From positions 230,878,221-230,942,220 of the forward strand of contig NC_133618.1 of assembly GCF_048593235.1 (NCBI RefSeq): a stretch of DNA of 64,000 nucleotides, written 5' to 3'. The DNA comes from Sminthopsis crassicaudata (taxonomy: Eukaryota). How positions within the stretch are numbered: the stretch's first letter is position 1; each line of letters begins with the position of its first letter. Positions 7,104 to 64,000 of this stretch are shown here, one piece after another. The notes under the pieces were generated by a model. The model worked only from the letters and a program-made list of their open reading frames with translations. It did not search any database and had not been told where the DNA came from. The translations under genes and the position numbers were made by a program.

Positions 7104-7508
7104 TGTAGAGAGCCAGAAGTCTGGAGAAGAATACTTGAAGCAAGGTGTTAACTCAGTGGAATTGATGAGATGATGGTTCTCTAGTTCACATATATACTTA
7201 GTACTTAGTATGGTGATGTAATGGTTCTCTAATTCACACAAACTCACTATGCTGTAATGATGTAATTGTAATAAAGTATGTAAGGCCTGAGAAGGCCTGG
7301 AAACGATTCATTCCATTTTTGACCATCCTCCTGGTGGCTCTCCTGCCTCCGGCATTCCTCCACTAAGATCAAGGCTGGGCCAGAATAAAGACTCTAGGCT
7401 CTATTCCTGACCTGACCATCCTCGTGGTGTCTATCTTGCTGAGACCACGGCCCATCCAAAGGACCTCCAGACCCAGTAGCCCAGATCTCCAATAGCCCAA
7501 ACATTACA
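7104..7508 (+). mobile_element. Solo LTR (ERV2/betaretrovirus-like family), 405 bp, in ADA intron 10
   Basis: TGTA...TACA termini; perfect 6-bp TSD CACCTC (7098-7103, 7509-7514); AATAAA 7384-7389; homologous to LTR at 60796. Confidence 0.93.
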
Positions 7509-21239: not shown

Positions 21240-23870
21240 TGGAATTGTTCAATTTAACTACTATGTCTTTGAATTTGCAACATAAGAATTTTTTTCCTAG
21301 GGGCAACCTGTGGAATTTTTTTTTTTCAACTGGCACTTATTTACTGTGTTTAGAAGTTCTGGGTAGTTTTCTTATATTATTATTTTATCTTTATTTATTT
21401 TTTTGCTGAGGCAATTGGGGTTAAGTGACTTGCCCAGGTCACACAGCTAGGAAGTATTAAATGTCTGAAGCCAGATTTGAACTCAGGTGCTACCTAGCTG
21501 CCCCCTTATATTATTTCTTGCATTATGGTATGCTTAAAGTTTTTGACTTGTGTTTTTCCAAAAAGACCTATAATATCTCTATGTATCCTGTCTTTGAGAT
21601 GAATAAAACTTTATATAAACATATTTTTTTTCTTTGAACATTATTGATTTTTACTTCTTTTCTTCCAGATAGTCTTTTACTTCTCTGTATTTGAATTTCC
21701 AATAACTTATTCTCTCTTTTGTTTATAGATTTAGGTTCTTCTCTTTTGTCAATTATTTTTGCTGATCAGGTCATAAATTCTGTTTTCATAATTCTTATTT
21801 CTCTTTCAAAACATTTAGGAAAATCCTGTTGTGGTTCCATACTTTCTTGGCAATCCACAAAATCCCCTGCCTCATAAGCTGTTGTTTCATTTGTCTTTGT
21901 CCTTGAATATTTTTATTTGAATATTTATTCATAGATATCTATAATTTTTGGAGTATCGATGATTTGGACTGATTTGGAGGCCATATTCTCTTCTGTTATA
22001 ACTGCCTTCACTGTTATTTTATCTGCTTATGCTCATGTTCTTTGGCTAAGTTTTCTTTTTTCTGAGATCATCTGGCAGTTTAAGTCTTTTCTCCTTATAT
22101 TTCCCAATTGCTTACTTTCTAAATTCTTTCCCTTTGATGGAGTTTCCCTAGAGGCTAGGCCTTAAGAGCTGGGTCAGCTTCCTCCCAGGTTGGGCAATTC
22201 ATGTTCAGTTGCCCAGTCTCTGCTCTCAAGCAACTTCTTAGGGGCTTGAACTGGATGCTGAAGGCAAAACTGGGTGCTGAGCTTGCTTCTTCAGGCTTGG
22301 GGTAACACTACAGGGACATAGGTGCGTTCTGCCCTGGTTTCTTCTATCACTTGGTTCTCTGAGCTTTTTGCTAGCTACACCACAAAGCACTCACTGAACT
22401 ACAGAGCTATCCCAGCCAGGTCAGACTTCTGCTTTTTGGTTTCTACTGCCCTGAGAGGAAGGGGGATTAGAAGTGAGTTCTGTTGCAAGCCTTTATTGGG
22501 CCATTGGGGGATGAGGGTACTGAGTGAGTACAGTCATTCATTGTTGTTGCCTCCTTGATATTTTTGGAGCCCTAGACGTCTGTAGAGGCAGCTGAAATTG
22601 TTTTATCTCTTGTGCATAATTCCTTTTTTGGAGAGGTCATGAGGATGAGGGAAAAAAAATGTCTAAAACGCCATCTTATGAATCTGGAAATTCATACTTC
22701 AACTATGACTCCCAACCCTAAATTTTCCCAAGAGAAATGATCAGAAGGCATTGATTCTGTACTAAGTCCTTTCTGCCTACTTCAGCAGGATAAATTATTC
22801 TTGGGTATATGCCATTTTTCTTTGCTTTTCAGAATCTCATATTCTAGTTTTTCTTTTTTTTCTTATTGATAATAAATAAATCTGCATTGTAATGGGCCAG
22901 AACTCTGTACTTGAAACAAGAATTCTTACAAGGTGATAACTGAGTGGAATTGATGAAACAATGGTTATCTAGTTGAGCATGGTGATTAATAGTAATCTAG
23001 TTCAGTATGATTGAATTAATCTTACAACAAATAATGGTTCCCTAGTGATATAATGATTGGCTTATACCCAGTATGATGAATGGATTTAATTGTAATAGAG
23101 TTTTTAAGAGGCCAAAGTCAGACCTACAGAGGGACTGAAATAGACTCGGGGAAGATAGAGGACTGGAGGCTGGAGCACAAACTCCAGGACTCAGGAAGAC
23201 TTCAAGACAGACACTGTGGTGGTGGTCCTCCTGCTTCCTCCACAGAAACCAAAACACACACATTCCAGAGGATCCGGAAATGCTGGCCTGGACCCCAGGC
23301 AAGAAAAAAGACTGTGAAGAAGATAATAAAGAATTTGGACTTTATCTCTAGCTATTCTCGTGGTGATTACTCTGCTGAAATGAAGGCTGGTCCAGAGACC
23401 TCCAGAAAACTAACCAGAACTTTACACTGCATGATGATAACTGGAGTTTCCTAGTATTGATCTGTTTCTGATTATATTATATTTTCTCTGTCTTATGTAT
23501 TTTGTAAACTTGACAGTAGTTTTTCTGGGTGAGTTAAGATGAGGTTCTTTTCTGGTGGCATTCTGTGGATTTCTTCAAAGTGTACTTTGTCCTCTGGCTC
23601 TTATATTTCTAGACAATTTCCTTTGACGACTTCTTAAAACCATTAATTCTGAAATAATGACCTAAATATACGTGTGTTCAAATTTTTTGTTAGTTTCATT
23701 ATGTTTTTCTAGGAGGCCAATGAATCTTGTGTGGCAGGTATTATCTGGCTTCATTCTCACAGAGTGAATGAAGCCTGCTATATCTTCTCTTCTCAGGGAA
23801 ATTCTTTGCTGTATCTCTTCATTACTGCCTTTAGTTTGGGCCTCCACTTATATTTCCCTATCACCAGTTA
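21240..23870 (-). mobile_element. Old fragmented L1 5' UTR/ORF1 segments, interrupted by SINE and LTR (related ORF2-start piece at ~18560-19370)
   Basis: Minus strand near 23550 reads FEEIHRMPPER, like L1 ORF1 IERIHRSPPER; near 22800 resembles the ORF1 PRITYPAKL region. Confidence 0.65.
22888..23426 (+). mobile_element. Solo LTR (ERV2-like), 539 bp
   Basis: TGTAATGGGCCAGAA...TTACA; perfect 6-bp TSD CTGCAT (22882-22887, 23427-23432); AATAAA 23325-23330; U3 matches LTR at 63807. Confidence 0.93.
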
Positions 23871-60559: not shown

Positions 60560-60795
60560 AATATTGGAAAGGATGTGGGAAAACTGAGACACTAATGCAT
60601 TGTTGGTGGAATTGTGAACTGATCCAGCCATTCTGGAGAGCAATTTGGAACTATGCCCAAAGGGCTATGAAACTATGCATACCCTTTGATCCAGCAGTGT
60701 CTCTACTGGGTCTATATTCCAAAGAAATCATAAAAGAAGGAAAAGGATCCACATGTGCAAAAATGTTTGTAGATGTTCTTTTAGTAGTGGCAAGG
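60560..60795 (+). mobile_element. L1 ORF2 3' fragment interrupted by the ERV
   Basis: ORF 60595: [22 protein letters not shown]...KMFVDVLLVVAR stops matching L1 at the LTR start. Confidence 0.9.
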
Positions 60796-61189
60796 TGTAA
60801 TGGGCCAGAACTGTGGAGAAATATACTTAGGACACAGTATGATTGATTTAATCCTACAACATGGTGCTAACTCAGTGGAATTGATGAGACAATGGTGATT
60901 TAGTTTACATATACTTAGTATTTAGAATGATAATGTAATAGTTCTATAATTGATGTAATTGTAATAGGGTATTTAAACTGGGGACAAACTCAGCCACCAT
61001 CATTCCATCTTTGATTAGCCTCATGAAGGCTCTCCTGCCTCCTGCACTTTGGGAGACATTGGTTCAGACTGGGAGACTGAAGGAGACAATAAAGACCTAG
61101 GACTCTATCCCTGACCATTCTTATGGTTGTTATTCTGCTGAGACTAAGGCTGGTCCCCAGACCTCCAGAAAACCAGCTGTAACATTACA
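60796..61189 (+). mobile_element. 5' LTR of ERV (394 bp)
   Basis: TGTAATGGGCCAGAA...CATTACA; AATAAA 61088-61093; immediately followed by PBS. Confidence 0.95.
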
Positions 61190-61192
61190 TTT

Positions 61193-61210
61193 TGGCACCC
61201 AACATAGGAT
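61193..61210 (+). promoter_or_regulatory. Primer-binding site, tRNA-Lys(CUU) type
   Basis: TGGCACCCAACATAGGAT vs TGGCGCCCAACGTGGGGC, 13/18, all differences transitions including two CpG decays. Confidence 0.85.
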
Positions 61211-61339
61211 AAGGACCTACATCCAACTGACAAGATCATGAGTTCAGTGGAGAAGTCCCCATGATGTGGAAATAGGGTGAGTATAAAAATAGACACGCAA
61301 GAAACTTTGGTAAGGGCTAAACTAGTATTTCAGCCAAAT

Positions 61340-62630
61340 TGGACAATGCTTAGAAAAGGGCCTTCCCCACCACAAAGGAAGTGTTTAGAGTGCATGGTTA
61401 AGCTAGTGTAAAAAAAAAAAAAAAAACAAGCTTTGATTGTAACTTGGAAGCAGATCAACAAACTCTTAGAAACTTTACAGTACATGTCTCCTTGGTTCTC
61501 TAAGGAAGAAAAATTAGAAACTAGTGGAAACTAGTAGGAGGGCAATTAATTGAATATTACAATGATAATGATCCTAATTCAATTCCTAAGGAAACACCAT
61601 TCATGAAGCAGCTTTGTCCACCCCTTATGACAAGATTCCAAAAGACACTAGTTAAAGCTAAAAATGACAGGATATATCTGATTTAAGAATAAAAGCCTAC
61701 TCTGTGATTGAAGAATTTGATTCTTCAGGTCAAGCCAGGAGAAGATACACTCCTTTGATCTGGAAATTATCAAAGATCTGAAAAAGGGTTGCATTCTTTA
61801 TGGAACTTCATTGTCTTATGTTAAGATGTTAGAGAATTTGGCTTTTGAAATTTTAACCCCTAGTGATTGGAAATCCATAACAAGGACATGTTTAGAACCT
61901 GGACAAAACTTGTTGTGACTTTCAGAATATAGTGAACTCTGTAGAATACAAGACCAACAAAATAGGCAAACTGGAATTAATATACCAATCACCTTTGATC
62001 AACTAGCAGGTATAAGTTATTATGCAGGCAGATTAATTACCCTTTGACAGCAAATCAGCAAATTGCTGCTGCTGCTATAAAAGCATGAGGCACCTCCCCA
62101 GGAAAATAAGATAGAGGGGAAGCCTTCACAAAAATAGCACATGGTCCAAATGAACCCTTTGTTGATTTCAAGGGATGTCTGCAGACAGCTGTTATATGAA
62201 CTATTGGTGAAAATGTAGCAACAGGAATAATGATAAAACAACTTGCTAGAGAAAATGCTAATGAGGTTTTAGAAGAATTATACTAGGACTACACAAAGAT
62301 GCTCCTTTAGAGGAGATCATAAGACGCTGTACCACAGTGGGCACAAATACCTTTTATATCCAGGCTATGATGCAGAACATGGGAAGACAGAGTCCCTTTC
62401 AGCAAGGGACTTCCAGAGACACTCATCAATGCTTTCAATGTGGTAAAGTAAGGCATCTGAAAGCTCAATGTTGGCATAGAGATAGAGCAAGAAAATAGAG
62501 ATACAGAACAAGACTCAAAACTCCATGTCCAAAAGGCAACAGAGGCTTCCATTGGGCATCAGAATGTAGATTGACTCAGGGAAATGAGAGGTGGGGCCCA
62601 CCTCCAGGGCCCCAGGCAAAAAACAGGTAG
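61340..62630 (+). pseudogene. gag: Decayed betaretrovirus-like gag (MA, CA, NC); start approximate
   Basis: MA KQINKLLETLQYMSPWF; CA DLEIIKDLKKGCILYG...LTPSDW; MHR FTKIAHGPNEPFVDF (62125-62169); knuckles CFQCGKVRHLKAQC (62430-62471) and CPKGNRGFHWASEC (62526-62567); internal stops and frameshifts. Confidence 0.92.
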
Positions 62631-62797
62631 GGTATGATGGCAGCCTAGGTTACACCCAGAGAGTCTTTAGAAGTTCATGATCAATCTGCCCAAAAGCAAT
62701 CTGATGGGAAAAAGGGATTACAATTGGGGAGAATAAAGGTTTTATAACCCGACAGAAGGGCAGTGGCCAGTGCAAGCAGCTCCAATATAATTGCCAG

Positions 62798-62926
62798 GTG
62801 ATGTGGAGAGATCCATAAAGTGGTGAATGGAAGGGACCAGATAGGTTAACTGCTTGGGGAAGAGGGTTTGCTTATATCTCTCTAGATAGAGAAGGAATTG
62901 CATGGATGCCAACAAACCATATTCAC
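62798..62926 (+). pseudogene. pol: Integrase C-terminal domain remnant
   Basis: VMWRDP*SGEWKGPDRLTAWGRGFAYIS...WMP, matching the betaretroviral IN pattern W.DP....W.GPD....WGRG. Confidence 0.85.
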
Positions 62927-63072
62927 CTTTTCCACTGGAGAGAGATAGAAAAAAGAGAAAAACCTTGAAACAAAGGAGAAAACTCAAGAAATATTGGATG
63001 ATTCCATCTCTGATTACTGAAAAAACATGACTGTTTAACTCAATGTGTATGGCAATTGACTCATGAACATCA

Positions 63073-63344
63073 AAAATTATTGATAAGACTGTTACAGAAC
63101 TTCAAAACCCACAGGAATCATTGAATTCCCTAAGATGAAAAATTGTTGATAAAACTGTTGTAATTATTGATAAGACTGTTACAGAACTTCAAAACCCTCA
63201 GAATCATTGGATTCCCTAACACATGATGAGACTATTGCAGGACTCCAAAACTTTTAGGAATCATTGGATTTCCTGACACATGAAGTAATGGACAATAGAT
63301 TGGTTTTGGATTATCTCTCGGCTGCTGAAGGAAGTGTATATATG
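63073..63344 (+). pseudogene. env: env TM remnant (heptad region and immunosuppressive-domain-like motif)
   Basis: DETIAGLQNF*ESLDFLTHEVMDNRLVLDYLSAAEGSVYM, resembling NRLALDYLLAxEGGVC of gamma-type TM. Confidence 0.75.
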
Positions 63345-63619
63345 ATTGTTATTTATATACCCTCCTTCTAGGACTTATGGAAATCAATTATAATACCATA
63401 TTGAATCATATTGTTTGTTATATCACTACTTGTATGAATTGTATAATTCATGTTTGTTACACCACATTGAGCCTGTTGAGACTGTGGGGAGAGCCATCAC
63501 TAGTAGCCTATGTTATATTACTATGTGCTTGTGTAATACCTCCCATGCTGATAGACTTGTGTAAACCTGTTTCAAGTGAGAAACTCGCTAACAAAATCTG
63601 GTTTGACTCCCCATTTCCC

Positions 63620-63780
63620 TTTGGTGTTTTCATCTCCATTCCTGAGATGTCAGGGAGGGCATGATCACCTTGTTTTTTGGTGTTTTCACCCCCTTTTCTG
63701 AGAAGTCAGGGAGGGCACGATTATGTCCTTTTTGGAGTTCTCATCTCCCTGAGAAGTCAGGAAGAGCATGACGACCTATG
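63620..63780 (+). repeat. Three tandem ~55-bp repeats in ERV 3' untranslated region
   Basis: Units start tttggtgttttca/tttggagttctca at 63620, 63676, 63731; each contains ctgagaagtcagg-like core. Confidence 0.85.
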
Positions 63781-63783
63781 TTC

Positions 63784-63806
63784 AAAAAACAAAAGAAAGG
63801 GAGAGA
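63784..63806 (+). promoter_or_regulatory. Polypurine tract
   Basis: aaaaaacaaaagaaagggagaga directly before the 3' LTR TG. Confidence 0.88.
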
Positions 63807-64000
63807 TGTAATGGGCCAGAATTCTGGAGAAAGGTGTTAACTCAGTGGAATTGATAAGACAATGGTTATATAGTTTAGCATGGTGATTAGTAATTCTCTA
63901 GTTCAGTATGATTGATTTAATCTTACAATAAATAATGGTCCCCTAGTGATATAATTATTGGTTTATACTCAATATACTGTAATGATGTAATTGTAATAGA
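63807..64000 (+). mobile_element. 3' LTR of ERV (truncated by window end)
   Basis: TGTAATGGGCCAGAA start after PPT; U3 similar to solo LTR 22888. Confidence 0.93.

Follow-up and report, generated by a model that had tools for sequence, protein, structure and literature searches.

A pol-less betaretrovirus-like ERV family in Sminthopsis crassicaudata that likely used its own Gag and likely passed its capsid to a young autonomous family

The analysed stretch of the Sminthopsis crassicaudata genome (64,000 nucleotides of NC_133618.1, referred to as the window) ends in an endogenous retrovirus (ERV) in which gag is followed directly by the end of the integrase. Is this the remnant of a one-off deletion at this locus, or one copy of an amplified defective family that is copied by autonomous relatives? 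A preliminary description of the sequence preferred the second possibility and saw an analogy with recombinant KoRV-type elements. The observations in that description are partly confirmed here, and its interpretation is supported with corrections.

The element spans positions 60796 to 64251, with the end lying outside the window and being read from locus L001, and all its features are on the forward (+) strand. It is inserted in the 3' end of an L1 (60551 to 60795), which resumes past the 3' LTR outside the window, and is flanked by a 6-bp target-site duplication, GCAAGG, at 60790 to 60795 with a second copy directly after 64251. The 5' LTR (60796 to 61189, 394 bp) is of a short subtype and differs from the 3' LTR of the long subtype (445 bp), which occupies 63807 to 64000 in the window and runs on to 64251. 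Between the two LTRs lie 2,617 bp, in line with the ~2.6 kb given before. The cis elements said to be kept are indeed present: both LTRs, a purine tract before 63807 and a decayed primer-binding site-like site at 61193 to 61210, which we take to be of the tRNA-Lys type. Two forms of the primer-binding site occur among the copies, one in L027, L016 and L138 and the other in L062 and L185, presumably resembling tRNA-Lys3 and tRNA-Lys1,2 sites.

The decayed gag (approximately 61330 to 62737) comprises matrix, capsid, two zinc knuckles and the gag/pro overlap, and contains at 62618 to 62624 the motif A AAA AAC, a putative -1 gag/pro frameshift heptamer. It is followed by the family-wide junction of a ~3.0-kb pro-pol deletion (62735 to 62738), located within what is the stop codon of gag in the pol-bearing relatives, and by the C-terminal domain of the integrase (62738 to 62990) with an 8-bp family gap near 62785. 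Further downstream are an env remnant (63075 to 63345), consisting of a 56-57-bp tandem and an ISD-like stretch near 63300, and a 3' untranslated region (63620 to 63806) with a 56-bp tandem and the polypurine tract. The env-remnant tandem (63075-63283) grows to ~11 copies in one young lineage (L063, 5931-6606). Within 12 window fragments, Pfam matched Gag_p10, Gag_p24, zf-CCHC_5 and IN_DBD_C, two of these matches being below the curated cut-off, and gave no match to protease, RT or RNase H, as had been noted from the sequence. The 6-bp duplications, the TG...CA LTRs and the heptamer are class II (betaretrovirus-like) features, and the pol-bearing relatives carry class II domains including RVT_thumb. 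According to the available text of PMC3835772, the same heptamer is the gag/pro -1 frameshift site of MMTV and IAP. The element is a decayed, old copy of a betaretrovirus-like class II ERV derivative.

Part of the damage is private to this copy. At 61595 it lacks 231-415 bp (mostly 270-290, ~280) that are kept in all 27 measurable siblings, and its gag carries six stops and several frameshifts in the part that aligns to a pol-bearing copy. Of the earlier reading of gag as full length but decayed, only the decay therefore stands. The integrase end had been placed ~170 bp after the gag stop; the integrase tail is there and a stop near 62628 fits that distance, but this stop was seen by eye in one of 29 aligned copies, and the true break is at the parental gag stop codon. 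The two LTRs are only 78.8% identical from end to end, with 149 gap columns, and each matches other loci at 81-90%. Such a mixture of subtypes could stem from gene conversion or from strand transfer between co-packaged subtypes. The pairing of a short 5' with a long 3' LTR recurs at a separate locus, L005; in the window copy it coexists with a perfect target duplication.

A search of the species' own genome, in which the best 40 of 14,397 candidates were scored and 30 loci were read, showed that the gag-to-integrase junction is identical in all 30 nearest copies. Searched with a 21-base pattern across the junction, the genome gives 161 exact matches, the control none. Since 13 of 43 junction copies that were found independently of this pattern match it exactly, ~530 copies can be estimated; this is probably too low, because a T run varies in late copies, and the family probably counts ~500 or more. 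When the integrase tail alone was used, the best 30 loci comprised 16 of the deleted type and 14 with integrase upstream. The flanks differ between copies, with locus-specific 6-bp duplications where readable. The family is thus amplified, as had been proposed: the junction is common to many loci, and relatives with pol exist as well. At L014, L017 and L021, part of a second element directly adjoins a deleted copy, in tandem or nested.

The window holds two further insertions of the same LTR family, solo LTRs at 7104 to 7508 and 22888 to 23426 (+ strand), with perfect 6-bp duplications CACCTC and CTGCAT, respectively. Three insertions within 57 kb had been reported as independent, which their own duplications bear out, but the clustering is mild. 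An LTR motif retained in 15 of 68 LTRs has 2,540 exact matches in the genome, which implies ~10,000 LTRs of this family, and ~56 windows of 64 kb with three insertions are expected genome-wide. Clustering was therefore dropped as a signal. On C7, the interval 49.5-50.6 Mb contains seven or more nearly equal matches to the 3' LTR, spaced ~100 kb apart, which suggest a large tandem segmental repeat.

How the deletion arose can be read from its two sides. On the left, the break falls in the codon with which pol-bearing copies terminate gag; integrase-derived DNA starts at ~62738. Pol-bearing relatives align on both sides, with 2,984-3,009 bp between. One base is common to the two broken sides, within 16 bases of loose similarity. 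This fits a template switch, and a single such event would have produced the deletion. Across the join, the gag frame continues into the last ~85 residues of the integrase. However, the second, 8-bp gap about 45 bases further (near 62785) closes this frame, so that the fusion ends after about 17 codons. This gap was found by script in 91 of 94 junction copies, with five exceptions counted by eye; no pol-bearing row in the latter comparison has it, which points to one origin in two steps. A lasting Gag-integrase fusion was rejected, as this gap ends the frame in almost every copy. At the junction itself gag and integrase are in frame, as gag and pol are in IAP I-delta-1.

Judged by sequence, the parent is MEBrv 3, described by Harding et al. 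(2024; PMC11334065, available text) as an env-less betaretroviral ERV clade of dasyurids with an ISD remnant and with elements of ~7.3-kb carrying gag, pro and pol. Gag and integrase of the relatives closely match its representative, with three differences in ~90 residues of the integrase end between L062 and the published supplement, as compared by eye, and env is likewise reduced to an ISD remnant after pol. The element in the window differs from MEBrv 3 as a derivative without ~3.0 kb of pro-pol, whereas its relatives keep gag, pro and pol. In the available part of PMC11334065, the pol-less family, selection on its gag and the mosaic young family considered below are not described. Since the env remnant is common to the pol-bearing, env-less parent, the env stub was inherited: the remnant near 63300 is real, but it is no mark of the deletion, the parent having the same junction there.

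Exact matches in the genome to the undeleted integrase side number 1,862, and those to the old-type undeleted pro side 410. The preliminary description had suggested looking for an autonomous helper with the same LTRs. L132 and L134, which have a complete pol region, do share the LTR family of the deleted copies, and both are old, but most sampled pol-bearing copies carry other LTRs; the helper search with Pfam returned mostly young families of the latter sort. Two old copies with other partial deletions, L137 and L138, also share the LTR family. Other internal deletions in pol-bearing copies were observed at L137, L138, L139, L216, L221, L227 and L233. A separate young betaretrovirus-like family, represented by L061, has open frames of 998 and 887 codons and no DNA match to the element.

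LTR pairs of the deleted copies, measurable in 20 of 69, are 82.8-97.3% alike (median 89.3; median K2P 0.116). With a neutral rate that we assume to be 2-3e-9 per site and year, and with CpG decay uncorrected, the median age is ~20-30 Myr and the youngest ~5-7 Myr. The late subfamily has a median of 89.7% (7 of 20 measurable copies), and LTR pairs show no separation in age between late and early subfamilies at these numbers (7 of 20 late, 20 of 69 overall). In public contigs from four other organisms, the element is represented by short stretches. Of those listed, one bridges the junction (62678-62791) and none spans the insertion site.

The deleted copies form a ladder of subfamilies, and the gag changes fixed along it are mostly silent. 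For the main test, changes fixed in the late subfamily (28 copies) were polarised on 14 early deleted copies and 13 old pol-bearing ones. These late-fixed changes comprise 37 silent and 29 replacement changes against 106 and 471 among singletons (P=2e-10). The silent excess holds without CpG sites (P=1e-9) and for transversions (P=4e-4), and a second ruler gives a like result. Outside CpG sites, variants present in at least eight copies are silent or replacement in a ratio of 71:88, compared to 119:644 for singletons (P=2e-14). A cruder test, which kept only shared variants of which one allele was missing from all of 11 pol-bearing copies, yielded six silent and 20 replacement changes and was not significant (P=0.28), with a filter biased against silent sites.

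The lesions in gag are largely individual. Frameshift events number 258, of which 219 are private, and even the commonest occurs in no more than six of the 58 deleted copies. An open capsid-nucleocapsid core was found in none of these 58. Three stops are common to 25, 21 and 13 of the 58 copies; they have a CpG-decay pattern and cross both subfamilies, and three lesser shared stops do not have this pattern. In spite of the CpG-decay pattern, the three main stops may have been inherited. In the late subfamily, one frameshift bin covers as many as 11 of the 28 copies by one ruler and seven by the other, probably as alignment noise. The frameshift heptamer is kept in two of 26 late copies versus 34 of 60 earlier ones, a loss that can be explained by the site being no longer needed without pro-pol. 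Overall, the substitution pattern points to a gag that stayed functional while the deleted family spread; the preliminary description had spoken of a possible satellite or defective-interfering element.

A young pol-bearing family offers a further clue to the fate of this gag. It has 858 exact marker matches in the genome, its LTR pairs are 98.9-100% alike (measurable in nine of 10 sampled copies), and an open pol frame of 895 codons is present in all 10 sampled copies, which were chosen for that frame. Its gag and pro form one frame, the slippery site being deleted. This single frame has 792-797 codons in L062, L266, L274 and further young copies; a sister young lineage (L063, L276) keeps three frames. 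The LTR of the young family is unlike that of the deleted family. Of the 28 pol-bearing rows in trees of the capsid-nucleocapsid region, 24 group together and L137 and L138 (old, partly deleted) fall among early deleted copies, whereas L062 and L068 nest on top of the ladder of deleted subfamilies, behind several strongly supported forks. Forcing all pol-bearing rows together is rejected (p-AU 1.9e-47), for a grouping that was chosen after inspection of the tree. Truncated or interrupted rows were omitted from the trees (24 of 81, two of 20 and two of 29), and some trees were made on chosen subsets.

Windows along L062 show a mosaic: matrix and pro-pol are nearest to the main pol clade (up to 98%), and capsid-nucleocapsid and the 3' region are nearest to late deleted copies. 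In four of five trees of pro-pol segments, the young family falls within the main pol clade (SH-aLRT 82-99), the 5' RT segment being without clear placement. The 15-base patch that precedes the frameshift site looks like that of early or main-clade copies and unlike that of late copies. The best 30 loci to the late-type gag are all deleted copies. A gapped pattern for pol-bearing copies with the late-type zinc finger found two matches, one in the young family and one in the old clade, neither on the ladder; its sensitivity is ~1 in 5 (11 of 54 copies), and with the best 40 of thousands scored, rare pol-bearing intermediates could be missed.

Taken together, it is likely that hundreds of MEBrv 3-type copies sharing one deletion were copied by a helper while using their own Gag, and that their capsid was passed to the young autonomous family. 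We also lean towards a fuller history, in which a Gag-only lineage persisted for many Myr with its capsid under purifying selection, discarded the frameshift signal and then regained autonomy by recombination with a helper, so that the young family would unite capsid and 3' end of the parasite with matrix and enzymes of the helper, and would obtain its protease from gag and pro fused in frame. Under this scheme, a template switch would have made the pro-pol deletion once, giving a Gag-integrase-tail fusion that the 8-bp gap would later have shortened. The deleted RNA, transcribed from the LTR, would be translated into its own Gag, which may package that RNA preferentially in cis into particles inside the cell that also contain Gag-Pro-Pol of the helper. 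The helper's RT and integrase would then reverse-transcribe and integrate it, mobilising it in trans, and recombination between co-packaged RNAs could have carried the late capsid gene into the young family. The loss of pol in a family with dispersed target duplications leads to this view of the mobilisation.

The most serious competitor is an ordinary parasite whose gag owed its selected state to an unsampled pol-bearing helper: deleted copies would have re-acquired gag from it repeatedly, and the young family would be its direct descendant. We consider this unlikely but worth keeping in mind, since there are clear signs of recombination, pol-bearing copies contain both alleles of 133 shared variants, and L137 and L138 combine the LTR family and the gag type of early deleted copies; the poorly placed 5' RT segment and the early-type patch before the frameshift site fit it too. 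However, no pol-bearing ladder copy was seen among the best 30 loci, 18 old-type pol copies or the two pattern matches, and the four pro-pol segments placed in the main pol clade do not suit a direct descendant of such a helper. Neither does the fact that late deleted copies have lost the frameshift site, a loss that a helper could afford only with gag and pro fused; the young family has that one frame.

Far less probable is a junction that arose many times, for instance from copies of spliced RNA of complete elements. The integrase side does resemble a splice acceptor, with a pyrimidine run and CAG-G, and in the gag tree the deleted copies do not make up a single clade. Yet the joined letters match no donor-acceptor product of the pol-bearing copies read, so that splicing was rejected as the source; pol-bearing copies do not have the 8-bp gap linked to the junction, and the lack of monophyly results from pol-bearing rows nested inside the deleted copies. 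A deletion at this locus after integration, or spread by segmental duplication, has hardly any credibility left: this copy does have private damage in its ~280-bp gap and unlike LTRs, but 161 exact junction matches and copies with differing flanks and locus-specific duplications speak against it.

Non-autonomous ERVs are a known kind. The KoRV-type analogy of the preliminary description does not hold, as IAP I-delta-1, a simple deletion, is closer and replacement of the centre by an unrelated older element, as in recKoRV, was rejected: there is no foreign insert, and both junction sides align to the same pol-bearing relatives. According to the available text of PMC6466679, the mouse IAP I-delta-1 is non-autonomous and loses 1.9 kb including part of gag, with gag fused in frame to pol and a cis role proposed for the translated product. 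Both cases share one internal deletion in many dispersed copies and an env-less betaretroviral parent, and the junction here would at first have fused gag in frame to pol as well. Here, in contrast, the gag of the family is whole and pro-pol is nearly all lost, the fusion is closed after about 17 codons instead of being long, and a long subfamily ladder is estimated to cover 5-30 Myr. ETn/MusD, the ERVK[2-1-LTR] D-type of cattle and recKoRV are likewise amplified defective partners of competent ERVs (PMC6466679, PMC10924933); as far as the available texts describe them, they swap their centre for other DNA and have no intact genes, unlike the clean deletion and selected gag found here.

Donation back to an autonomous family is known from Athila in Arabidopsis. 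According to the available text of PMC2410132, purifying selection acts on the gag of pol-less Athila elements, which recombine with autonomous ones and give rise to new autonomous lineages. A pol-less group with a selected gag that seeds an autonomous lineage would be common to both systems; Athila is a plant Ty3/gypsy group with tens of copies, whereas a mammalian class II ERV with hundreds on each side is concerned here. The literature searched, mostly outside subscription papers, yielded no report of a mammalian ERV donating its capsid back to an autonomous family and no description of the deleted family, for which a Dfam or Repbase entry may exist; the available part of PMC4408412 describes other devil ERVs.

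Defective ERV partners are usually seen as dead-end parasites that may drive their helpers extinct (PMC10924933, available text). In this marsupial, it seems that a defective lineage retained a working capsid and gave rise to one of the youngest autonomous families of the genome. Whether defective partners serve as a reservoir of genes, and whether the exchange of capsids aids the persistence of ERVs, thereby becomes testable in a mammal. Surveys based on pol would miss hundreds of copies of the dominant dasyurid ERV clade and, with them, part of its history.
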